Shown here piece after piece: positions 2,837-60,531 of a stretch of DNA of 64,000 nt. The position numbers were made by a program, and so were the translations under genes. The first letter of the stretch is position 1. Each line of letters begins with the position of its first letter. The notes below the pieces were generated by a model that did no database searches, had not been told where the DNA came from, and saw only the letters and a program-made list of their open reading frames with translations. The DNA comes from Promethearchaeota archaeon. GTDB taxonomy: Archaea; Asgardarchaeota; Lokiarchaeia; Sigyniarchaeales; SOKP01. The stretch is from NCBI GenBank assembly GCA_019058295.1, contig JAHPZI010000007.1, positions 47,465 through 111,464 on the forward strand, in the 5' to 3' direction.

Positions 2837-3934
2837 TTAAGTCAATAAAGTCCATGCAATTTTATTTTCTTCAAACATTTGTTTGTTAATTTCAACACCT
2901 AATCCAGGTTTTTCTAAGGCTGAAACGAATCCCTTTTCAACCTTTATAGGTTCTTCGAGAAATTGAAATTGTTCTGGGTAATATGGGAATTCGCATATTT
3001 CGCATCTTGAAGCCATAATGAAATGTAAATTTGCAGCTATAGTATGGCCATAACCAAAAATATGAGGTATGCATCGAACGCCTTTCACTTCTGACATAGC
3101 ATCAATTTTTTTGAGTTCGATAAAGCCTCCGCTACGTGTTACATCTGGTTGAATAATATCATAGCACCCTCTCGTTAATATATCTTCGAATCGGAAAATT
3201 CCCATGTCATTTTCTCCACCTGCAATTTCAATTGGAGATTTCTCTCTTAATCGAGCAAGACCATTTAGATTATCACTAGGTAAAGGTTCTTCCAGCCAAG
3301 TAAGGTCGTATTTATCGCAAATTCTTGCTACTTTTAGTGCATCGCTTACTGAAGTATATCCCGAATTAACATCAACCATTATTTCTATGTCTGGAAATGT
3401 ATCTCTTACGGCTTTTATAAGCATTTCATCCTTTTTGATTCCTTGTCCTATTCTTAACTTAACAGCAGTAAATCCTCCTGTTTGAACTGCACTTTGTACA
3501 GCTCCAACTGCAGCCTTAGGTTTATAAACTTTAAATAACGAAGCGTAAGCGCGAACTTTTTGTTTTCGAGCCCCTAATAGTTTATATATTGGTTGTTTTG
3601 TAATCTTGCCTATAATATCCCATAATGCAACTTGCACAGCACTAGTTGATTGCGGTATTCCAAACATAATTCTATTTGACATATGATATATATCATTATA
3701 GATATCGTCTGTCAAAAAAGGATCTCTATTTATTAAAAATTTCTTCAATGCTTCATCTATAAATTGCTTTTGAGCCATATTTGATAAATTCCAATGAGAT
3801 AGAGCCCAACCATCAATACCCTCGTCTGTTATGATTTGAATATATAAGCCAGATGCTTTGAAACGTGGCATTGATCCAATTTTTATCTTAAAGTCAGGTT
3901 GAATCACATGTGTTTTAACATCTGTAATTATCAT
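2837..3934 (-). CDS. Mandelate racemase/muconate lactonizing enzyme family (enolase superfamily)
   Basis: ALWDIIGK...PIYKLLG, KLR, MVDVN, WLEEP, GGEN, IIQPDVTRSGG, PGLG. Confidence 0.9.
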   Translation of the reverse strand: MIITDVKTHVIQPDFKIKIGSMPRFKASGLYIQIITDEGIDGWALSHWNLSNMAQKQFIDEALKKFLINRDPFLTDDIYNDIYHMSNRIMFGIPQSTSAVQVALWDIIGKITKQPIYKLLGARKQKVRAYASLFKVYKPKAAVGAVQSAVQTGGFTAVKLRIGQGIKKDEMLIKAVRDTFPDIEIMVDVNSGYTSVSDALKVARICDKYDLTWLEEPLPSDNLNGLARLREKSPIEIAGGENDMGIFRFEDILTRGCYDIIQPDVTRSGGFIELKKIDAMSEVKGVRCIPHIFGYGHTIAANLHFIMASRCEICEFPYYPEQFQFLEEPIKVEKGFVSALEKPGLGVEINKQMFEENKIAWTLLT

Positions 3935-4014
3935 AATTTATATCCTCTATCATTTTTTATTAATTTAATTCTTTTAATTATAAAATCTTATAATTGTACG
4001 ATATCTTAATTTTA

Positions 4015-4122
4015 TTAAAACTTGGATCCGGCAGAATTACTACCTTCTAAAGAGTTTATAGCACCAACTTCGAATTTAAAATCAAGCTTTCATTTGTATT
4101 TTTTGAATTCTATAATTTTCAT
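4015..4122 (-). pseudogene. Possible decayed N-terminal fragment of an SMC/Rad50/ABC-type ATPase
   Basis: Manual translation MKIIEFKKYK*KLDFKFEVGAINSLEGSNSAGSKF* loosely resembles the strand-strand-GxNGxGKS start of these ATPases. Confidence 0.25.
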
Positions 4123-4226
4123 AAAAATCAAATTAGAAGTGTTTAAATTAATCATCTTTATTATTAGTATAGCTGTTTAGAAAAAAAATATTTCAATCTC
4201 TTTTTAAAATCACTGTATATAAGCGT

Positions 4227-5177
4227 ATGAGATTAGTAGGACCATCAGAGAAAAAACCATTCGAAGATCTATTCGAGGTATATTTATTATTCCTTGATGA
4301 GACTCGAGGAAACATGCCCTTCTTAATTCATCCTGATGAATCCATTAAAAACAATAAAGAAAAGATGCGTCCAATAAAGATTCATAGTGTTTGGTGGACA
4401 GATATGGAGGATCAAGCTGTAATGGATCACATTGATCTAGAATATAGTAATAGAACGTATTTAGCAAGGAAGTTCTTAACATTATCAAAAAGGAGTCAAC
4501 ATCGGATTGGAACAACCTTTGATAATATTGAAACTATTACAATTATATTTGTTTTGCCTTCTAATCTATATATTTTTGGTGTAGATCTTCTAAATAAACT
4601 GACAACAAATATTATAACAAATTTCGAGGGACAATTATATAAAGTGATTGAATCAGAAATTGCAAAAGAAGAGATAATTAAATCTGATAAAATTATAGAG
4701 ACTATTAAAATAGGAGAAAAGGTTAAACAAAAATTAAAAAATCTTATTGTAAATACTTGTAAAGATTTTTTTTCTTCAGTTATTAAAGAAGATAATAAGA
4801 ATTCAATTGAACTGCAGAAAGCAATTTCTTATTTTTCTCTTAAAGGGATAGATTCTAGTGATGAAAGGAATTCCTTTTCAAAAATTAAAGTTTTTGAACC
4901 AAAAATAGGGGACAACAACAATGAATTTGAAATTATTGTTCAAAACAATTCTCAAAAGGAATATAATAATCTTTCTATAAAAATAACCTATTTAAAGGAA
5001 TTTCTCGAAACAGAAATAATGAATTATCCTATAGATAATTGGTTCCCAGAAGAGGAATTATTGTTTATTTCTCCAATTATTCCTAATGTTAACGAGTATC
5101 ATTTATTTATTGAACACAATAAGAATCAATGTTTTTCAAAAAAAATAGATTTAAATGCATTCATTAAATATAATTAG
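4227..5177 (+). CDS. uDENN/longin-like N-terminal domain plus C-terminal Ig-like beta domain, paralog 1
   Basis: YLLFLDETRGNMPFLIHP resembles the uDENN/longin beta1-beta2 motif; shares DHIDLE, KEEIIK, QKAxSY and WFPEEELLFISPIIPN with the next ORF. Confidence 0.6.
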   Translation: MRLVGPSEKKPFEDLFEVYLLFLDETRGNMPFLIHPDESIKNNKEKMRPIKIHSVWWTDMEDQAVMDHIDLEYSNRTYLARKFLTLSKRSQHRIGTTFDNIETITIIFVLPSNLYIFGVDLLNKLTTNIITNFEGQLYKVIESEIAKEEIIKSDKIIETIKIGEKVKQKLKNLIVNTCKDFFSSVIKEDNKNSIELQKAISYFSLKGIDSSDERNSFSKIKVFEPKIGDNNNEFEIIVQNNSQKEYNNLSIKITYLKEFLETEIMNYPIDNWFPEEELLFISPIIPNVNEYHLFIEHNKNQCFSKKIDLNAFIKYN

Positions 5178-5196
5178 AAATTAATATTTATTTCTC

Positions 5197-6240
5197 TTGA
5201 TGGCTGACTTATTTAATTCTAAATCACCAGAAAAAGCATTAAAAGAAGAAATCTGTGTGGTTTATATTCTTTATTTTGACGAAGCTAAAGGTCATGTTCC
5301 ACTCCTAATTTTTCCATTTGAAGAAGGATATAAACTTAAAGATGATAAGCGATTTATGCGACCTATCAAATATCATCCTGTATGGTTTTTATCTATTGAA
5401 GAACAAGAACCATTGGATCATATCGACCTCGAATTTAAAGGTTATACTTTTTTCGGTAAAAAATTTCTAACTAAATCTAAGAGAAAAAAAAGACGAGCTG
5501 GTCTTAAGGAGGAATCTCCTGAGATAATTGTTGTAATTGCATCGGTGTCAAATGATATAGCAATCTTCGGGGATGAACTTATTCATTTAATAACAGACGA
5601 AATCAAAGAGAAATTTGATGACAAATTGTTTAAAATTATTGAATGTGAGATTGCTAAAAATGAAATTATTAAAACTCCAGAGATCAAGAAAATCATTGAA
5701 GAAGGCATGAAAATAAAGGAAGATCTTAATAAGTTGATTCGTAAAATTACTGACAACTATTTTCTCAATGCAATAAAGCAAAAAGATTTACATTCAATGA
5801 ACCAACAAAAAGCACTTTCATATTTAGCTTTAAAAGGAATTGATGTATCATCCATAAGTGATAAAAAAAAACCTGATTATTTTTTAAATATTAAATTATT
5901 TGATCCCTCTATAAAATCCGCAAATGAATTAGCGCTAAAAGCACCATTTATTATAACTAGTGTAACTTTAATCGAAGATAGTCAAGAATTAGAAATTACG
6001 GTTCAAAATAATACGGGAAAAGAAATTAAGGATGTGATCATAAATATTACCCATTTAAAAGAATTTTTTGAAAAAGAAATTATGGAACAAGATATTGATC
6101 TATGGTTTCCTGAAGAAGAATTGTTATTTATCTCACCTATTATTCCTAATATTAACGAATATCTCTTTTTCATCACCAAGAAAGAAAATAAAGAAAAAAT
6201 CCTCTCAAAAAAAATTGATTTAAAATCTTTAAAAAATTAA
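5197..6240 (+). CDS. uDENN/longin-like N-terminal domain plus C-terminal Ig-like beta domain, paralog 2
   Basis: YILYFDEAKGHVPLLIFP; C-terminal ELEITVQNNTGKEIKDVIINIT; tandem paralog of 4227..5177. Confidence 0.6.
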   Translation: MMADLFNSKSPEKALKEEICVVYILYFDEAKGHVPLLIFPFEEGYKLKDDKRFMRPIKYHPVWFLSIEEQEPLDHIDLEFKGYTFFGKKFLTKSKRKKRRAGLKEESPEIIVVIASVSNDIAIFGDELIHLITDEIKEKFDDKLFKIIECEIAKNEIIKTPEIKKIIEEGMKIKEDLNKLIRKITDNYFLNAIKQKDLHSMNQQKALSYLALKGIDVSSISDKKKPDYFLNIKLFDPSIKSANELALKAPFIITSVTLIEDSQELEITVQNNTGKEIKDVIINITHLKEFFEKEIMEQDIDLWFPEEELLFISPIIPNINEYLFFITKKENKEKILSKKIDLKSLKN

Positions 6241-6257
6241 TTAATTTGATTAGAAAA

Positions 6258-6746
6258 ATGTCAAATAATATTCTTAAAGAAGATGAAATCATAATAAGAA
6301 ACTATCGGACCTCTGATTATGAAGCAACACTTGAAATATTAAAGCAACTTGATAAAGAATTAGATATTGGATTTAAAGAGGAACAGTGGAAACAATCCTC
6401 TGGTCTACGACAATTTAAACCTAATTTAAAACGTATAACTCTTATAGCTGAATTAAAATCGACTGGTGAAGTTGTAAGTATGGGGATGCTTGAAGCAGTA
6501 AAAAATAGTTTAGGCCAATATGTTGGTTATCTGGATAACTGGTCTACAAAAAAAGAATTTATTGGTAAAGGCGTTGGAAAAATACTGGCGGACAGAGCCA
6601 TTCAAATACTTAAATCATGGGGTTGTACTTCAGTAAGAATTAATATGGGTTATAATGTAAGTAAAAAAATAATCGATGTTATTTGTAAAGGACAAGGATT
6701 TTCTCCCGTTTTTATAGTTTTAGAAAAGAAATTTGATGAAACATAA
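6258..6746 (+). CDS. GNAT family N-acetyltransferase
   Basis: IIIRNYRTSD start; motif A-like KEFIGKGVGKIL; G-C-x-x-V-R-I. Confidence 0.8.
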   Translation: MSNNILKEDEIIIRNYRTSDYEATLEILKQLDKELDIGFKEEQWKQSSGLRQFKPNLKRITLIAELKSTGEVVSMGMLEAVKNSLGQYVGYLDNWSTKKEFIGKGVGKILADRAIQILKSWGCTSVRINMGYNVSKKIIDVICKGQGFSPVFIVLEKKFDET

Positions 6747-6916
6747 ATTTAACTTCTTTTCTTTATTAGCATTAGCATTTATGTTATTCCCTTTTAAACA
6801 TTTTATACTTGTTTTTCACCTAAAAATCAAAATAAATATTTTTAATCTTTACTTCTTTAAAATTATAAATTAAAATTAAAAAAAAAATAAAACAAATAAA
6901 AGGGTTGATTTTAAAC

Positions 6917-8383
6917 GTGATTGGAATAAAAACGTTTGGTGCATATTTGCCAAAGTATTTAATGCCCCGGGAGTTAGTTGCTAAAGCTTAGTTTAGTTCA
7001 AATTAAGCGGAAAAAGCATGGGATTTTCCATCTATGCCAGGGACTAAAGCTTTGGCTAATTCTGACGAAGATAGTATTACAATGGGAGTAGAAGCTGGTC
7101 TTGACTGTATAACTGGAATAGATCCTAAAACAATTGATGGACTTTTTTTTGCAACAACCACTCAAGTTTATACAGAAAAAAATTCAGCAGCATTTATAGC
7201 AAATATATTAGATTTAAGGGATGAGATTATTACTGCAGACTTCACAGATTCCTTAAGGGCAGGAACCACTGCTGTATGTAGGGCAGTCGAAGCTATAAAA
7301 GCAAATAAGGATATTAAAAGTATCCTTGTTATCGCTGCTGATACTAGAGAACCTGAACCAGGTACATTTTGGGAATATGGTTTGTCTGATGGGGCTGCTG
7401 CCTTACTTATTGCGGAAGAAGATTTATTACCACTTTCAATTGAAGATTATTATTCAGTTTCGGCAAATGTTACTGGTCCTTGGAAAAAACCTACAGATAA
7501 ATTCATTAAAACATTTCAAGATAAAATGGATAATAAATTCTATTTTGAAAGCTTAACAAAAGCTATGAGTGGACTTTTAGAGAAAAATAATTTAAAACCT
7601 GAAGAAATTGCTAGTGCTGCGTACCATTATCATGATCCTAGGGTACTTGGGATAGTTTCTAAAATGATGAAATTTCCTCAAGGTGTTGCTCAAAATGGAT
7701 TATTTCTTCAAATAGGGTGTGTTGGAACTCCAATGGCATTCTTGTTATTGATGTCTGCTTTAAGAAGACCCAAACCTGATACTAAAATAATTTTTGCGGG
7801 ATATGGAGATGGTGCTGATGCAATTTTATTACAAGTAAAAGATAAAGATCTTTTAAAAGCTTCAAATAAGGGAAGAATGGGCTTGTTAAAACACCAAAAA
7901 TCTATGGCACAATTAAAAAATTATAATACGTTAATCGAAAATAAGAAACTTATCGATAGACATAGATATTCAAGAAGGAGTTCAGCTGTTACACTCTGGC
8001 GGGATACTAAATCTTTATATCAGATGTATGGGATTAAATGTAAAAACTGCGGAACTATTCAATATCCAGCGATGTTTAAAGGTTGCTATAACTGCAGAAC
8101 AGATGATCAATTTGAATTTGTAAAACTCTCTTTAAAAGGGACTGTTTTTACTTATACTTTGGATCATTTGTATGGAGGGAGTTATTTAAATACTCCTGTA
8201 CCGAGATGTATAATTGACTTAGAAGGCGGTGGGCGTATAATGCTTGATATGACTGAAATTGAAAATCCAACTGAAAATGTCAAAATTGATATGCCGGTTG
8301 AATTAACTTTCCGATTAATGCATGAAGGCGGAGAATTCCGCAATTATTATTGGAAATGTCGCCCTGTAAGGGGGAGACCATAA
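6917..8383 (+). CDS. HMG-CoA synthase-like domain fused to DUF35 (Zn-ribbon + OB fold); interrupted by a 30-nt in-frame insert; 478 aa if the insert is removed
   Basis: GTG 6917 opens MIGIKTFGAYLPKYLMPRELVAKA (typical family N-terminus), in frame with ATG 7034. DEDSITMGVEA, SDGAAA, GYGDGADA; CKNC/CYNC; C-terminal YYWKCRP. Confidence 0.85.
6985..7014 (+). other. 30-nt stop-containing insertion: candidate BHB-type mRNA intron
   Basis: In-frame TAG (6989) and TAA (7004). 9-bp hairpin 6986-6994/7000-7008. AAA bulges at 6983-85 and 7013-15. Flanked by direct repeat AAAGC. Removal gives ...VAKAWDFPSMPG. Confidence 0.6.
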
Positions 8384-8397
8384 GAGAGGTGAAAAGA

Positions 8398-9576
8398 ATG
8401 GTTAGAAAAGGAATTGCAGATAAAATTGCGATAATAGGATGTGACGCCACAAAATTTGGTGAAAGATGGGATAAAAATCAATATGATTTATTATACGATG
8501 CAGTTAAAGGTGCCAGAGATGATGCTGGAATAACTAAGGATGAGATTGATGCGGTTTGGGTTGGGATATTTTATTTCTTTACAGGGCTTTCAGGGGCAGT
8601 AGTAGAAGATATTTTAAGATTGGATGGGAAACCAGTTACTAGAACGGAGAATTACTGTGCATCGGGAATGGATGCTTTCAGAAATGCTTGTTTTGCTCTT
8701 GCTGGTAATGCATATGATGTTGTTCTAGCATGTGGTGTAGAAAAATTAATGGATGAGGCCTCTAGTGGATTACCTGGCTTTGAATTGTTTGGTCATCCCA
8801 CATTACCTATACCTTCTGCTCCAGCAATGTTTAGCTTGGCAGCAACAAGATCATTTCACACATGGGGGTGGACTAAGGAGGATTTAGCTCGGGTTGCTGT
8901 TAAAAACCATGAAAATGGCTCTCATCATCCAAAAGCACATTTTCGGAGACCAACTACAATTGAAAAAGTAATGAGAGATGTTATGATTGCAGACCCCTTA
9001 GGGAGATCTGATTGTTGTGCAATGAGTGATGGAGCAGCAGCTTTAATCTTAACAAGAATAGAAGATGCTCCAAGTTATTCTTCGCACAAGGATGATTATA
9101 TAGTTGTAAAAGCGAATGCGATATCTTGTCAAACAAATACTCCTTGGTATAATCCAAATCACACCTTCACAAGTTTTCCAGCAACAGTAAAAGCTGCGAA
9201 AATGGCTTACAAAGAGGCAGGTATTACAGATCCTAGAAAACAAATCGATTGTGCTGAAGTTCACGATTGTTTCACGATTACTGAACTTTTAAATTGCCAA
9301 GATTTACAATTCTGTGAGATGGGAAAAGCAGCTGAAGAATTAAAAAACGGAACTTTTAATTGGGATGGTGAAACTGCAGTTAATCCATCCGGTGGTTTAA
9401 AATCCTTCGGTCATCCAATAGGTGCTACAGGATGTAGAATGCTACAAGAAATAACCAAACAACTTCAAGGAAGAGCCGAAGGCAGACAAGTTCCTGACGC
9501 AAAAATTGGTTTGGCTCATAATCTTGGCGGAGCATTTTGTGTCTGTAGTACTAGTATTTTAGGACAAGCAGATTGA
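8398..9576 (+). CDS. Thiolase family protein (archaeal/SCP2-type acetyl-CoA acetyltransferase)
   Basis: ENYCASG, SDGAAA, AEVHDCF, NPSGG, GHPIGATG, HNLGG; SD GAGGTGA before ATG 8398. Confidence 0.92.
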   Translation: MVRKGIADKIAIIGCDATKFGERWDKNQYDLLYDAVKGARDDAGITKDEIDAVWVGIFYFFTGLSGAVVEDILRLDGKPVTRTENYCASGMDAFRNACFALAGNAYDVVLACGVEKLMDEASSGLPGFELFGHPTLPIPSAPAMFSLAATRSFHTWGWTKEDLARVAVKNHENGSHHPKAHFRRPTTIEKVMRDVMIADPLGRSDCCAMSDGAAALILTRIEDAPSYSSHKDDYIVVKANAISCQTNTPWYNPNHTFTSFPATVKAAKMAYKEAGITDPRKQIDCAEVHDCFTITELLNCQDLQFCEMGKAAEELKNGTFNWDGETAVNPSGGLKSFGHPIGATGCRMLQEITKQLQGRAEGRQVPDAKIGLAHNLGGAFCVCSTSILGQAD

Positions 9577-9722
9577 AAATTATAAATCCTAATAATTTTT
9601 TTTCTTTTTTTTATTTGTGAATGATAATCTTCAAAAATAAGGAATTTTATCGTAATTTATCATATAAAAAAATATAAAATTATACAATTATTTAAAATTA
9701 ATTTCTTAGGAGGTAGAAAATT

Positions 9723-10013
9723 ATGACTGAAAAAGCAAGAATTGGTTACAGAATTGTAGGGACTATAAAGGATGTAAAGGGAGTTTGTAATGCTGGTCAC
9801 AAAAAAGGAGATAAAATAGAGATAAGTGGATATGACAGTGGAGGCTTGTGTGGTTTTTTTTATCACGATATTTTCCCATATATTATCATGCTTCAATTCG
9901 GAGGGGGTTTTCCAGCTAAGTGGGTTGAAGATCCAGATGTAGTTGAGCTTGAATGTATGGATAAATTTAATGCAGTTAAAATAGAATTAAGAAGGATAAA
10001 AAGTGAAGACTGA
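9723..10013 (+). CDS. TIGR04076-like small Cys protein
   Basis: KGVCNAGHKKGD, GLCG, LQFGG, ECMD; SD AGGAGGT upstream. Confidence 0.75.
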   Translation: MTEKARIGYRIVGTIKDVKGVCNAGHKKGDKIEISGYDSGGLCGFFYHDIFPYIIMLQFGGGFPAKWVEDPDVVELECMDKFNAVKIELRRIKSED

Positions 10014-10079
10014 ATTAAATATTAATTCTATATTGGAAAAGTCAATAATCTTTTAATTTCTAATTAATTCTATTTAATT

Positions 10080-10934
10080 ATGAGTAATGCTAGTTTTAAT
10101 CAATTCAAGGGGAATGTTAACACTGAACGAGTTCAATATATCGCAGATCCTCAGCTGAGAAATATTGTAAACGTCTCAATTGCTTTAGAGCGTCCATTAC
10201 TAGTGAAGGGAGAACCAGGTACAGGAAAGACATTATTGTCCCACGCGATCGCCGAGGCACTTGGAAAGCGTTTAATTATTTGGAATATAAAAAGCACAAC
10301 CGAAGCGATTGATGGGTGCTATATGTATGACACAGTACAAAGACTAAACGATAGTCGATTTGGAAGCGACGATCGCAATGTGAATAATATTAAAGATTAT
10401 ATAACCCTTGGACCGCTAGGAGATGCATTTGTTTCTGAGGAACAAGTTGTTCTCCTTATTGACGAAATTGATAAGGCTGATATAGAATTTCCAAATGATT
10501 TATTACAAGAGCTTGATGTAATGGAGTTTTACATTAAGGAAACCAAAGAGTTTATAAAAGCAAAAACGCGTCCTATAGTAATTATTACCTCAAATAACGA
10601 AAAAGAACTCCCGGATGCATTTCTTAGGAGATGTGTATTTCACTGGATAGAATTTCCCTCTAAGGAATTTATGGCTGAAATTTGCAATTTACATTATCCT
10701 AATTTGAAGAAGAATCTACTTGATCAATGTCTTAAACATTTTTATTGGTTAAGGACTATAACTAAAATCAGAAAAATGCCGTCTACTTCTGAACTCTTGG
10801 ATTGGATAGGAGTCTTATTAAAAAGTGGCATTTCGATTGATGAATTAATGAAAGGAATACCTTTTCTCGGAGTCCTTATAAAGAAAGAAAAGGATCTTGA
10901 AGCTGTATTGGCAAAAGCACAATTTCCAACCTAA
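10080..10934 (+). CDS. MoxR family AAA+ ATPase
   Basis: GEPGTGKT, LLIDEIDKAD, ITSNNEKELPDAFLRRC. Confidence 0.93.
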   Translation: MSNASFNQFKGNVNTERVQYIADPQLRNIVNVSIALERPLLVKGEPGTGKTLLSHAIAEALGKRLIIWNIKSTTEAIDGCYMYDTVQRLNDSRFGSDDRNVNNIKDYITLGPLGDAFVSEEQVVLLIDEIDKADIEFPNDLLQELDVMEFYIKETKEFIKAKTRPIVIITSNNEKELPDAFLRRCVFHWIEFPSKEFMAEICNLHYPNLKKNLLDQCLKHFYWLRTITKIRKMPSTSELLDWIGVLLKSGISIDELMKGIPFLGVLIKKEKDLEAVLAKAQFPT

Positions 10935-10949
10935 TTATTTTTTCTTAGG

Positions 10950-12188
10950 ATGTTTGTAGAATATTTTTATTATCTAAAAGAAATACTTCCCTCGGTAAGT
11001 ATTACCGAATATATGACTCTACTGCAAGCCTTAAATAAAGGACTAATCCATAATATGATGGATTTTTATTACATCTCACGGAGTATCTTATGTAAGAACG
11101 AGCATCATTATGATCTTTATGATATTGCTTTTGCTAATTTTTTCAAAGACGCTTCAATTAAACTTACTGATGATATAAATCAAGAAATCTGGAAGTGGTT
11201 GCAGAAAAATACAGAAGTATTAAATTTTCCATTTAGTATCAGAGAATTTCAAAATGTTAATTTAGAAGAATTAGAAAGAAGGTTTGAACAATTATTAAAA
11301 GAACAAAATGAACGACATGATTACGGTAACAAATGGATTGGGACTCAAGGACAATCACAATTCGGAAATTCAGGGCTAAATACAATGGGAATAAAAGTCG
11401 CTGGGGGAGTTGGCTTGCGTAGAGCAGTTATAATTGCTCAAAAAAGAATATTCAAGGATTATAGGAAAGATATTATCATCGGGACCAGGCAAATTAAAGT
11501 AGCTTTAAAGCGTCTTCGTAAATTAGGCGATATTGGCAAACCTAACGAATTAAATTTAGATAAAACTATTGATTTGACGGCTAAGAATGGAGGAGATATT
11601 GATTTATTCTTCGAAAAAAGGAAGAAAAATAATGTAAAACTAATACTTCTGATGGATGTTGGAGGTACTATGGATCCTTATATTCATCAAGTTAATTTAT
11701 TATTCTCTGCAGCGAATCATATGTCGCATTGGAAAGATTTTAAGTATTACTATTTCCACAATTGTATTTACGATAAATTATATAAAAATGCCGCAAGAAC
11801 TCCACAGAGGGCAATTGATTTCGACGATTTTTTAAGAAAATATAAAAACTCATATCGAATAATTATTGTAGGAGACCAATGTATGCATCGCAGTGAATTA
11901 AAAAATCCTCGAGGTGCCATATATGACGGAGCCACAAATAAAAAGCCTGGAATTTATTACATAGAAGAAATTGCACAACACTTTAAAAATAATGTTGTAT
12001 GGTTAAATCCTGAACCCAATACTGTTGAATGGATGTCATGGACGCGATTAGTTATCTCAAAAATTATTCCAACGTACCCATTTACAATTGAAGGCGTTGA
12101 AAAAGCCATGGATTATTTAAGAACCAATGGTAAAAACTCATATACTACAGTACAACAGCTTAAAGGAGTCCCATTAGCTTTTTATTAA
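10950..12188 (+). CDS. vWA-domain (CoxE-like) MoxR partner, copy 1
   Basis: GNKWIGTQG, LLMDVGGTM, YYFHNC, IVGD, VWLNP. Confidence 0.85.
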   Translation: MFVEYFYYLKEILPSVSITEYMTLLQALNKGLIHNMMDFYYISRSILCKNEHHYDLYDIAFANFFKDASIKLTDDINQEIWKWLQKNTEVLNFPFSIREFQNVNLEELERRFEQLLKEQNERHDYGNKWIGTQGQSQFGNSGLNTMGIKVAGGVGLRRAVIIAQKRIFKDYRKDIIIGTRQIKVALKRLRKLGDIGKPNELNLDKTIDLTAKNGGDIDLFFEKRKKNNVKLILLMDVGGTMDPYIHQVNLLFSAANHMSHWKDFKYYYFHNCIYDKLYKNAARTPQRAIDFDDFLRKYKNSYRIIIVGDQCMHRSELKNPRGAIYDGATNKKPGIYYIEEIAQHFKNNVVWLNPEPNTVEWMSWTRLVISKIIPTYPFTIEGVEKAMDYLRTNGKNSYTTVQQLKGVPLAFY

Positions 12189-55317: not shown

Positions 55318-56499
55318 ATGGAGACATCTAAAACTGAAGATACTATCCTCCTTATTGATGCATCAAGATCGATGATAAAAAAATATCCTAAACCTATTCG
55401 AATTAGTAGATTAGCTGTCGCATTGCAAGCATCAAAGAATTTTATTCAGACTAAACTTGCTATTGATCCAAAAGATAATATTTCCATAATTTCATTTGGA
55501 ATTAATCCAAAAAGACTATGTCCATATACTTACGATAAGAATGTGTTATTTAATTCATTAAAGAAAATTCAAATAACTGGTAAAGGTCATTTACACCAAG
55601 CAATTGCATTTTCATTACAAATAATCATTCAAGAAATGCGTAAGATAAGTGGAAAAATTCATAGAATTTTCATCATAAGCGATGATAAATTAAATTATCA
55701 AAAAAAAATAGAAAAAATTGTTAATCTTGCTAAAGGATTAGGCGTTTATATTGATGTATGTCAAATAGGAAAGCCGCAAGATTATAAAACGAGCTCACTT
55801 AAAAGGATTGCTGATTTTACAAACGGCGATTATGGTTATTTTAATAACCCGAAAGCAATAATTAATTCTGGAAAAGAATATGCATCAAAAAAATTAGTTA
55901 GATCGCAACCAAGCTATTATTCTTCAGATAAGATAGAAAAAGTAGCTCCATTAATGAGTGAAATTGCTTTACCTTTAAGAAGACCAACTTTAATGGAAAT
56001 ACGCTCACTGATGAGAGAAAGTGGAATAGGAGAAAAAAAATGCGGTATTTGTCATTCAATTAAAGCTCCATTAACTAATGCAGATTTTTATACAGAAGGG
56101 CGATATTGCCCTAATTGTGACAGACCAGTACATTTATCATGTGCAGCTATGTGGGCAAAAAAATCCGAAGATAAAAAGAATGTTTTTAGATGTCCTTTTT
56201 GTTTTTTCTTAATTAAAATTTCAAGATCTGCTATGAAAATGTTTGAAAATTTAGATAAGGACTCTGATGATCCTGAAATAATTGAAGAAAGTTACATTAA
56301 AGAAGCAAATATGATTGAAATTAAGAATATTGATCAAATCAACGCATCATGCACTTATTGTTATAATATTTTTTTAGGAGATTTTAAAGTATTTAAATGT
56401 GAGAATTGCGGTTCTTTCTATCATGACCCATGCCTTCAGAAAATGTATACCGAATTGAAGGCTTGTAGATTCTGCGGTGCTAAAATTATTAACTTGTAA
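55318..56499 (+). CDS. vWA domain plus two C4HC3 RING/PHD-like fingers
   Basis: LLIDASRSM MIDAS; CxxC..CxxC.x4.HxxC..W..CxxC, with a second finger at the C-terminus. Confidence 0.8.
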   Translation: METSKTEDTILLIDASRSMIKKYPKPIRISRLAVALQASKNFIQTKLAIDPKDNISIISFGINPKRLCPYTYDKNVLFNSLKKIQITGKGHLHQAIAFSLQIIIQEMRKISGKIHRIFIISDDKLNYQKKIEKIVNLAKGLGVYIDVCQIGKPQDYKTSSLKRIADFTNGDYGYFNNPKAIINSGKEYASKKLVRSQPSYYSSDKIEKVAPLMSEIALPLRRPTLMEIRSLMRESGIGEKKCGICHSIKAPLTNADFYTEGRYCPNCDRPVHLSCAAMWAKKSEDKKNVFRCPFCFFLIKISRSAMKMFENLDKDSDDPEIIEESYIKEANMIEIKNIDQINASCTYCYNIFLGDFKVFKCENCGSFYHDPCLQKMYTELKACRFCGAKIINL

Positions 56500-58679: not shown

Positions 58680-59087
58680 CTATTTTTCATATAAGTAAAT
58701 TCCATTTGCCTTTAGAATTTCTCCAGCTTTATCATTATCACTGACATGTATAATGAGCACTGGTCCTTTCTTTACAAAAGTACTATAGAGAAAATCAATG
58801 TTAATATTATGATCTCCTAATACTTGAGCAACCTTTTCAATTAGTTCTGAACTAGTTGGATTGTCGGGTAATAATACAGCAATTACTTCTTTCATGGAAT
58901 AATCATATTTGTTTTCATCTAATACCCTTTTCATATCGTCAGGTTTATTAACAATAAAAAGGACTAAACCTGGTATCTGAGAAACCGTAATTGATACAAT
59001 TATAATATTATTATCATTGAGCATTTTAGTGAACTCGGCTAACATACCGGGTTGGTCAGGCATCTTAACTGAAATTTGAGTCAACAT
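58680..59087 (-). CDS. Tandem ACT-domain protein
   Basis: QISV..PDQPGML, second ACT unit LPDNP...NINIDFLY. Confidence 0.85.
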   Translation of the reverse strand: MLTQISVKMPDQPGMLAEFTKMLNDNNIIIVSITVSQIPGLVLFIVNKPDDMKRVLDENKYDYSMKEVIAVLLPDNPTSSELIEKVAQVLGDHNINIDFLYSTFVKKGPVLIIHVSDNDKAGEILKANGIYLYEK

Positions 59088-59168: not shown

Positions 59169-60398
59169 CTATAACTTCAGAGAGAAGACCGGATTTAACC
59201 GAGCAATTATATCACCAAGGTCTAATTGGAGTGTTTTTAAAACAATATCTCTCCCTCTATATTCATATTGAATTTCTCGGACATTTCTAATTATTTTTAG
59301 TCTATTTTTAATCATTAATTCGCAAACAAAATACCGTTGATCCTTGTATTCTAATACTTTTTTAACATTTTTTATAGTTGGAAATCTATATCCGGCTCCA
59401 TGTGGTAAGATATTCGCTGATTCTAATATGTCTTTAATTCCTAAATTATCTATTCTTTCTAAAAAATTAAGATTTTTTAAATTTGTTTCTGAGAGATTTT
59501 TTTTCCCTCTAAACAAGTAAGCAGAGATATCAGCTCTAAGCGCAGTAGGAAAAATGTCTGAATTAATAAATTCGCAATTTATATCGGTACAATTACTTCC
59601 TAAATATATATTGTTATAATCCATTAGGAACTGGTGAGGTTGATTACAAATATTTCTATAGCTACCAAAAATCTTCTTAGCAATAATCTCTCTTTTGGCT
59701 TTAGAAAATTCAATTGCTTTTTTATTAAAATTAAGATATTCTTTTGCCTTTGAATCAATTAGAATATATTGCTTTCCAAATTTTGTAATTTCTTCAATTG
59801 CAGAATCTTTTAAAGTTCGAGATTTATCAATATATAATCCCAAACCATGTTTATCATCGGAAAATTCTATAGCTGAACCATGAATAAAAAAGATATACGG
59901 AGGTAAAGATATATCCGTTAAATTTTTAGTTTCAAAACAGCTAATAAAATGATTGCTGACATCATAATCCCAGTCTAATAATATATCATTATGATATAGC
60001 TCGGATCCCTTTATCTCATCAATTCTTTTAATAATATCATAAACTTCAGGAACTTCTTCTAAACCGCCAACTAAAATTCCGCAACAATTAGGTTTAACAT
60101 TTAAAAATATTATTTTATCCTTACCATTGCCCCAATTTAATTTACCTCCATATCCTATTCCAGAATTCCATCTAAAAACATTTCTTGAAATTGTTTCATC
60201 AGGAGATGATATAAAGGTTGCCTTTGGGTCAAAACCATATTTTTCTTGAATAAGATGAAGCATAGCTAAGCCATATTTCATATTTGCCTTACACAATTTC
60301 GAAGCGCCATCATTGAGACCCATGGAAAATATAAATGATTCTGCCCTGTTTAATAATTCTGCTCTTTGTAAGTTTGATACAATTGCGGTAGAGTCCAT
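59169..60398 (-). CDS. Divergent RtcB-like RNA ligase family protein
   Basis: Ordered motifs SPD...GYGG, NCCG, SNHF, IHGS, PHQ, PHGAG, EIQYEYR and terminal ARLNPVFSLKL parallel the RtcB motifs. Confidence 0.7.
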   Translation of the reverse strand: MDSTAIVSNLQRAELLNRAESFIFSMGLNDGASKLCKANMKYGLAMLHLIQEKYGFDPKATFISSPDETISRNVFRWNSGIGYGGKLNWGNGKDKIIFLNVKPNCCGILVGGLEEVPEVYDIIKRIDEIKGSELYHNDILLDWDYDVSNHFISCFETKNLTDISLPPYIFFIHGSAIEFSDDKHGLGLYIDKSRTLKDSAIEEITKFGKQYILIDSKAKEYLNFNKKAIEFSKAKREIIAKKIFGSYRNICNQPHQFLMDYNNIYLGSNCTDINCEFINSDIFPTALRADISAYLFRGKKNLSETNLKNLNFLERIDNLGIKDILESANILPHGAGYRFPTIKNVKKVLEYKDQRYFVCELMIKNRLKIIRNVREIQYEYRGRDIVLKTLQLDLGDIIARLNPVFSLKL

Positions 60399-60531
60399 TA
60401 TTAATAAGAAAATTCTTTATGTAAAGACTAAGATTCCATATGAAAATATTAATATATATTATTAATGATTTATAAATAATTGAGATTATCCTATAATCCC
60501 TACCGAAAATTACATTTTTATTATTATTCCA

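Follow-up and report, generated by a model that had tools for sequence, protein, structure and literature searches.

A deeply divergent, unannotated family of the RtcB superfamily in Asgard archaea, probably acting on a substrate other than RNA

An RtcB-fold protein encoded in a Lokiarchaeial genome

We analyzed a 64,000-nt stretch of the genome of a Promethearchaeota archaeon (GenBank assembly GCA_019058295.1, contig JAHPZI010000007.1, positions 47,465 to 111,464; hereinafter the window), which is AT-rich with a G+C content of ~30%. On its minus strand, positions 59169-60398 constitute an open frame with an ATG start that codes for a protein of 409 aa. An earlier note on this DNA had described the product as a highly divergent, compact RtcB-like RNA ligase. 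Having read this open reading frame (ORF) and checked the codon coordinates of its key residues against the DNA, we find that the protein represents a branch of the RtcB superfamily that is new and has diverged deeply. This branch, uncharacterized and with a remodeled second metal site, is present in many Asgard lineages, has at least one bacterial member and is invisible to Pfam and NCBIfam. The first half of that description is thus upheld by structural, profile–sequence and profile–profile evidence, including the retention of the Cys/His/Asn set and of the nucleotidylated His; the term RNA ligase, as argued below, is not.

The relationship to RtcB emerges from several kinds of comparison. 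The match of the protein to the Pfam RtcB model (PF01139) reaches 12.3 bits against a gathering cut-off of 27 (E 0.098), which by the Pfam threshold would place it outside that family proper. From NCBIfam, two short RtcB models match at E ~3e-4 over residues 192-249 only, and a single-sequence search of PDB sequences returned nothing meaningful. A profile of the family run against PDB, on the other hand, gives four best matches that are all RtcB (2EPG, 1UC2, 4DWR and 7LFQ; E 0.01-0.017), with NHF aligned on NHF and the next His on the His of HxGS and, in a second stretch, HGGG on HGAG and YRG on AYK. The same profile run over sister genomes retrieves the canonical rtcB genes as secondary matches (per-genome E 5e-6 to 8e-4). 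Profile–profile comparison with 33 canonical Asgard RtcB sequences by means of hhalign, comprising local alignments of the two halves of the protein, yields E-values of 1.1e-4 (residues 144-408) and 7.9e-5 (residues 16-160). These results point to a remote but statistically significant sequence homology to RtcB. Concordantly, an AlphaFold2 model built from an alignment of 55 members (mean predicted local distance difference test score 96.3; predicted template-modeling score 0.93) recovers 16 Foldseek matches at E<=1e-3, all of them RtcB (best E 8e-8); the predicted fold is that of RtcB over most of the chain, and the earlier note's refuting condition, a fold other than RtcB, therefore does not apply. 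From the full-length superposition together with the residue-level alignments we infer that C106, H150, H173, H255 and H333 would converge in three dimensions.

A conserved catalytic core with a remodeled second metal site

The positions of the principal motifs are given below, with conservation counted over the same alignment of 55 diverse full-length members, which are 24-71% identical to the window protein; all lie on the minus strand.

59169..60398: deeply divergent RtcB-fold protein of 409 aa with no model in Pfam or NCBIfam
60198..60203: P66-D67, counterpart of the RtcB 'PD' motif (Pyrococcus horikoshii D65) in the N-terminal hhalign alignment (E 7.9e-5); D in 53/55
60081..60095: K102-P-N-C-C106, in which the bridging Cys (P. 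horikoshii C98) is kept and the Mn2 ligand Asp95 is replaced by Lys/Arg; C in 51/55, K/R in 40/55, N104 in 47/55
59946..59954: N149-H150-F151, equivalent to RtcB N202-H203-F204 by HMMER to 1uc2/2epg and by hhalign; N in 53/55, H in 55/55, F in 55/55
59880..59882: H173, equivalent to RtcB H234 (Mn1 ligand) by an HMMER profile match to PDB RtcB and by hhalign; invariant
59631..59636: H255-Q256, equivalent to RtcB H329-N330 (Mn1 ligand; gamma-phosphate contact) by hhalign; H invariant, Q in 37/55
59388..59402: H333-G-A-G-Y337, equivalent to RtcB H404-GAG-R408, with the nucleotidylated His kept and the Arg replaced by Tyr; H in 55/55, Y in 44/55
59256..59261: Y380-R381, aligned with the RtcB 'AYK' motif; Y in 45/55, R in 52/55
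59175..59177: K408, the penultimate residue, counterpart of RtcB K480 by hhalign; K/R in 39/55

All the motifs quoted in the earlier note occur in the order given there: SPD (65-67), GIGYGG (80-85), PNCCG (103-107), SNHF (148-151), IHGS (172-175), PHQ (254-256), PHGAG (332-336), EIQYEYR (375-381) and the terminal ...SLKL. Its further observations, namely a replacement of the metal-binding Asp before the Cys and the loss of the Arg residues after HGS and HGAG, likewise hold across the family: position 102, followed by P103 and the mostly conserved N104, is occupied by a basic residue in the majority of members, the position after HGS is I177 and variable, and that after HGAG is predominantly Tyr. 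Six residues (H150, F151, H173, H255, G267 and H333) are invariant in 55/55, and D67, C106, N149 and R381 are conserved in 51-53/55, a level of motif conservation that exceeds chance by far. The residues D30, R72, N73, R76, N104, E178, K/R180, T205, R236 and R381 are conserved in a family-specific manner.

To relate these residues to function, we took the roles of the P. horikoshii residues from published accounts (PMC9745838, PMC8051266 and PMC10630183) and assigned counterparts by hhalign; in particular, the metal roles of Asp95 and Cys98 and the guanine role of Lys480 are from PMC9745838, and the polynucleotide contacts of Arg238, Arg190, Gln194 and Asn202 from PMC8051266.

Cys98, ligand of Mn1 and Mn2: C106, 51/55
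His234, Mn1 ligand: H173, 55/55
His329, Mn1 ligand: H255, 55/55
His203, Mn2 ligand: H150, 55/55
Asp95, Mn2 ligand: K102, K/R in 40/55, within KPNxCG that has no conserved Asp
His404, guanylylated nucleophile: H333, 55/55
Asn202, holds the 5'-OH and contacts the alpha-beta bridging oxygen: N149, 53/55
Asn330, gamma-phosphate contact: Q256, Q in 37/55
Lys480, guanine O6 contact: K408, K/R in 39/55
Glu206, guanine N1/N2 contact: S153, variable (N/D/E/S)
Arg238, binds the first two phosphodiesters of the 5'-OH strand: I177, variable
Arg190 and Gln194, contact the T2pG3 phosphate: no counterpart, as a segment of ~70 residues is absent from the family
Arg408, follows the nucleophile His in the HGAGR motif: Y337, Tyr in 44/55

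At the aligned positions the Mn1 ligand set is thus complete (C106, H173 and H255), and the Mn2 set is incomplete, with two of its three ligands kept (C106 and H150) and the Asp lost. Among the contacts to the 5'-OH polynucleotide, N149 is kept, and the equivalents of R238, R190 and Q194 are lost or deleted. As judged from the alignments, the core that carries the chemistry is intact; a positively charged residue stands in place of one metal ligand, and the residues known to hold the polynucleotide are gone.

The comparison with characterized relatives may be summarized as follows. With canonical RtcB (PF01139; 1UC2/4DWQ/4DWR/7LFQ, T. thermophilus 2EPG and human RTCB 7P3B/8ODP) the family shares the order and identity of Cys98, Asn202-His203-Phe204, His234, His329, His404, Tyr451 and the penultimate Lys, as well as the 'PD' motif and the C-terminal strand; it differs in its overall sequence, with 12-15% identity to the window protein, and in its gene neighbors, with no archease seen among those annotated. 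The short bacterial RtcB proteins (TIGR03073 'release_rtcB', i.e., the PrfH-associated RtcB2, and PRK09588, the E. coli type) resemble it in length (~360-410 aa) and provide the best, though weak, library matches (E 2.8e-4, residues 192-249). However, the window protein scores 20 bits against their cut-offs of 272 and 407, and its family lacks both the PrfH or RtcA/RtcR context and the Mn2 Asp.

Phyletic distribution and conservation

A search of a collection of 90%-identity clusters recovered 441 relatives of the 409-aa protein at E<=1e-3, and the representatives of 50%-identity clusters include 236 matches; all 120 of the relatives listed are without a precomputed Pfam domain and are labeled 'hypothetical'. 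The closest public relative, a Lokiarchaeial metagenome-assembled genome of the Promethearchaeota, encodes an orthologue that is 97% identical. Lokiarchaeial members remain ~70% identical to each other across genera, which speaks for strong purifying selection. At the level of genomes, the family is present in 31/41 close relatives and 63/151 sampled genomes of the phylum; of 64 tallied matches, the one in genome G138 was left out as it is merely a cross-match to canonical RtcB. No homologue was found in the size range 810-2310 aa (the 743-aa fusion discussed below lies outside this range). A full-text search of the literature recovered no description of this RtcB-like Asgard family, although its coverage is incomplete and the family may have been described elsewhere.

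The family is not restricted to Asgard archaea: a divergent clade includes a protein of the bacterium Winogradskyella (Bacteroidota), encoded on a contig of 5.3 Mb. A language-model atlas additionally pointed to an Altarchaeota-rich cluster, which we treat as a lead only. Separately, a contig labeled 'Candidatus Nanopelagicaceae bacterium' (DATKTW010000029.1) carries a 68%-identical copy of the Lokiarchaeial gene along with its 212-aa neighbor, and looks like a mis-binned archaeal contig.

Coexistence with the canonical ligase and the question of introns

Canonical RtcB is encoded in 37/41 close relatives and in 146/151 sampled genomes of the phylum. Given this coexistence throughout the phylum, the RtcB-like protein is not the tRNA-splicing ligase of the cell; its family is a separate, paralogue-like extra and not a housekeeping ligase. 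In the window's own assembly, which is 79% complete, there is no match to PF01139 or to archease (PF01951). The sister genome that bears the 97%-identical gene is 99% complete and carries canonical RtcB. As the assembly is incomplete and the close relatives possess the ligase, a missing contig is the likeliest explanation for its absence.

The earlier note had also raised a partnership of the RtcB-like protein with non-tRNA introns, such as one suspected at 6985-7014 of the window. We find no support for it: canonical RtcB is near-universal, and the genomes in which we met an interrupted rtcB mostly lack the RtcB-like family, which is found in 1/6 genomes of the group in question. The stretch 6985-7014 itself sits between ORFs, and nothing ties it to the RtcB-like gene.

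Two observations on canonical rtcB were made along the way. In three genomes of one genus of the same phylum (loci L184, L185 and L186), an insertion of 30 nt, which contains a TGA or TAA in frame, splits the conserved LPD|AHQGYG motif; the exon bases on either side are predicted to pair, and compensatory changes are seen in an inner hairpin. The insertion may represent a small intron within the mRNA of the ligase itself, or a case of recoding. Elsewhere, certain canonical rtcB frames are 973-1015 aa long, with a match to the RtcB model that does not start before position ~45 (e.g., G079:C5, G087:C31, G072:C16 and G130:C130, and further G064:C1, G103:C1, G166:C91 and G043:C38), which suggests intein-containing or otherwise extended forms.

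Gene neighborhoods link the family to phosphoesterases

We surveyed 41 diverse loci across the phylum, with the neighbors annotated in part. A catalytically intact GDPD glycerophosphodiesterase lies beside the RtcB-like gene in 15/41 loci; a tandem calcineurin-type metallophosphoesterase of ~525 aa is found in 13/41, and an HD phosphohydrolase in 7/41. The PDB sequence matches of the metallophosphoesterase include 2DXL/3D03 (listed as 'phosphohydrolase'), which we take to be the glycerophosphodiesterase GpdQ. Other neighbors include a DAO-type flavoprotein, a gamma-glutamyltransferase (GGT), DegV and a GalT-like protein. Among the partly annotated neighbors in these 41 loci we saw no archease, RtcA, splicing endonuclease, helicase or tRNA gene.

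A quick maximum-likelihood tree resolves three deep subfamilies. Subfamily A unites the window's clade with clades linked to HD and GDPD, to HD and DAO, and to the metallophosphoesterase; subfamily B is GGT-linked; and subfamily C is characterized by a tight cassette of metallophosphoesterase, RtcB-like and GDPD genes, with gaps of 78 and 24 bp in one representative (L025). As both A and C include phosphoesterase neighbors, and the gene order differs between the two, the link exceeds mere inherited synteny. The three-gene cassette is present in some genomes of one genus and absent in others. At the level of whole genomes, the co-occurrence of the tandem metallophosphoesterase with the family is suggestive but not clean, and where the two do go together, this largely reflects the cassette itself being present in some genomes and not in others; the presence or absence of GDPD, which is encoded in 131/151 genomes of the phylum, is uninformative for that very reason.

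A further clue comes from a 743-aa protein (P0145) in which a small-molecule kinase domain of the APH type (PF01636, E 3e-20), with visible HxDxxxxN and DWD motifs, makes up the N-terminal part and is followed by a complete RtcB-like domain (residues 332-733) with all catalytic motifs. The fusion is a single uninterrupted ORF in the DNA (7986-10232 of locus L188) and recurs in a second, independent assembly. It belongs to a metagenomic operon (3518-11751, plus strand) whose genes, all on the same strand, also code for two HydE/PylB-like radical S-adenosylmethionine enzymes, an ATP-grasp ligase, a HisC/CobD-like pyridoxal phosphate-dependent enzyme, an SDR protein and a HAD phosphatase, with a GT4 glycosyltransferase nearby. 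We consider this operon a candidate biosynthetic cluster for a phosphorylated metabolite. As it joins a kinase that makes phosphomonoesters to a domain whose family chemistry is the activation of a terminal phosphate with a nucleoside monophosphate (NMP), the fusion hints more strongly than any other observation at small molecules as substrates, at least for this branch. Locus L189 carries a partial copy of the operon that is 63% identical.

Proposed function and alternative explanations

To our knowledge, RtcB is the only type of enzyme that joins 3'-phosphate to 5'-OH ends via a His-GMP intermediate, and all its characterized members act on nucleic acids. Against this background, we propose that the window protein is an active enzyme from a separate, unannotated family within the RtcB superfamily, with a non-canonical substrate for which we favor small phospho-esters; on balance, we hold this proposal to be somewhat more likely than not. 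Its components differ in strength: that the protein is an enzyme we regard as almost certain, and RNA is probably not its substrate. As for the substrate class, we favor phospho-alcohols and glycerophospho compounds over polynucleotide ends; kinases would supply such esters and phosphodiesterases would break them down. In the case of the Lokiarchaeial clade to which the window protein belongs, this proposal is extrapolated from the other branches of the family.

Briefly, the following mechanism may be envisaged. In the presence of a divalent metal and a nucleoside triphosphate, H333 would become nucleotidylated to yield His333-NMP. The NMP would then be passed to a terminal phosphate to give an X-O-P-P-N intermediate, upon which attack by a hydroxyl may follow, with formation of a phosphodiester and release of NMP. 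In this scheme, the Lys/Arg at position 102 plausibly replaces the lost contact of Asp95 and Mn2 to the beta and gamma phosphates, and N149 would position the nucleophile and the GTP phosphates as Asn202 does in RtcB.

Cobalamin nucleotide-loop assembly by CobU/CobS, where CobU forms a His-GMP intermediate, and phosphocholine decoration by LicA/LicC/LicD both make phosphodiesters via an NDP-activated phospho-alcohol. There is a more specific and decidedly tentative version of our proposal, to which we would assign a lesser, though not negligible, probability: that a single protein of this family suffices to synthesize phosphodiesters of small molecules or glycans. A kinase-made phospho-alcohol would be converted to an NDP-alcohol through His333-NMP and joined to a hydroxyl, with the GDPD, GpdQ-like and HD enzymes as hydrolytic counterparts. 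It would then represent an analogue of the CobU/CobS or LicC/LicD steps that is widespread in Asgard archaea. The resemblance is one of chemical logic only (a kinase, followed by NMP activation of the phosphomonoester and hydroxyl attack), and both the APH-kinase fusion and its HisC/CobD-like neighbor fit this logic; the folds are unrelated, and we propose an analogy without claiming homology.

The principal competing account, which we consider unlikely but take seriously, is that of a second, specialized RNA (or DNA) 3'-phosphate/5'-OH ligase, i.e., an RNA-repair or processing paralogue that seals particular broken or spliced RNAs by the RtcB pathway. It draws on the retention of the chemistry-bearing RtcB residues, including N149, whose equivalent holds the 5'-OH nucleophile, and on K408 and Y380, which match residues aligned with the guanine site of RtcB; further, the Lokiarchaeial gene is flanked by metG and by a gene for a protein with a weak Sm-like C-terminal fold. 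Several considerations weigh against our own proposal, some of which favor this account. Our case is built from sequence, structure prediction and gene context, and includes a predicted convergence of the catalytic residues. The window's own clade has no phosphoesterase neighbors, only one lineage is known to carry the kinase fusion, and the co-occurrence with the tandem metallophosphoesterase is not obligatory, with exceptions in both directions. Moreover, metallophosphoesterases and HD enzymes also heal RNA ends, and as neighbors they are therefore compatible with an RNA role, while the window protein is basic (pI 8.6). Nevertheless, the residues by which P. horikoshii RtcB grips the 5'-OH polynucleotide (R238, R190 and Q194), along with R408, are not conserved or are deleted in this family; RNA-processing genes were not seen in the 41 partly annotated neighborhoods; GDPD, GGT and DAO as neighbors, together with the fused APH kinase, speak for small molecules, and the gene context of the family as a whole for the metabolism of small phospho-esters; nearly every genome already has canonical RtcB; and the family is mostly acidic, its median isoelectric point (pI) of 6.3 against 8.5 for canonical Asgard RtcB being weak evidence for a non-RNA substrate. 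It is on these grounds that we do not adopt the label of RNA ligase.

The remaining explanations retain parts of the RtcB reaction or dispense with it. A phosphate-end capping enzyme, which would guanylylate a 3'- or 5'-phosphate nucleic-acid end and stop at X-pp-N without sealing, corresponds to the earlier note's second suggestion, a 3'-end guanylylating enzyme, and resembles the capping activity of Myxococcus RtcB3. Capping of DNA 3'-phosphates by RtcB has been described as well (PMC8051266). Such an enzyme would accommodate a kept His nucleophile and Mn1 site beside the loss of the R238 equivalent implicated in sealing, but not the near-invariance of N149, which is also implicated in sealing. 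Since, in addition, a nucleic-acid gene context was not seen in the loci surveyed and the arguments from small-molecule context apply to it as well, we regard it as improbable. To a metal-dependent hydrolase pure and simple, acting on cyclic phosphates or phosphodiesters on an RtcB scaffold alongside the neighboring phosphodiesterases, we would assign a marginally lower probability still. The clustering with three kinds of phosphodiesterase would suit it, as would the intrinsic 2',3'-cyclic phosphodiesterase step of RtcB (PMC3458531). However, the title of that very paper describes the step as GTP-dependent, and plain hydrolysis would call neither for an invariant H333 nor for the conservation of all the residues that contact the NTP phosphates. 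Least credible of all is an RtcB-fold protein that has lost its catalytic activity and acts in a structural or regulatory capacity: the loss of the Mn2 Asp and of several RtcB Arg residues might be read in this way, but among members of 24-70% identity, six invariant and ~20 near-invariant positions fall on the active site of RtcB, and the Lokiarchaeial genera hold to ~70% identity among themselves.

If the activation of small phospho-esters proves to be the true function, it would widen the known reach of RtcB chemistry and provide a function for a protein that is conserved, under the label 'hypothetical protein', in those archaea most closely related to eukaryotes. Were the family to consist of second RNA ligases instead, it would point to an RNA-processing or repair route not known so far in these organisms.

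The Lokiarchaeial neighborhood and further observations

We also compared 80 related Lokiarchaeial loci, which come from close relatives only and give no measure of taxonomic range. The RtcB-like gene is convergent with metG in 76/80 and divergent from a gene for a 212-aa protein in 70/80, followed in 64 by a gene for a 412-aa P-loop ATPase; such gene order is synteny among kin and says little on function. The features of the window that adjoin this arrangement are:

60399..60531, no strand: AT-rich intergenic region of 133 bp between the RtcB-like gene and the divergent 212-aa gene; presumed promoter region
58680-59087, minus strand: ACT-domain pair protein, encoded on the strand of the RtcB-like gene and 82 bp downstream of it; present in 3/80 loci
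55318-56499, plus strand: 393-aa protein with a von Willebrand A domain and RING/PHD/C1-like zinc fingers, an architecture like that of eukaryotes; adjoins metG in 69/80 loci

The ACT-domain gene is probably a recent insertion between the RtcB-like gene and metG. PADLOC gave no match for the RtcB-like gene or its neighbors in the window, in which neither a tRNA nor an Rfam family was found. The ~200-aa genes upstream in the Lokiarchaeial and Odin-like loci were considered as hidden HD-domain proteins, and no relation was found.

Elsewhere in the window's own assembly (G000), contig C18 carries a tandem metallophosphoesterase gene (5990-7570, minus strand) 44 bp upstream of a gene for a THUMP/ThiI-like protein (4723-5946, minus strand), an adjacency that is kept in the other five genomes inspected of the same family and not outside that family. 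Finally, on contig C14 an RNase III-domain protein (PF00636, E 9e-13) is encoded at 7808-8536 on the plus strand, near the GDPD gene of this genome.

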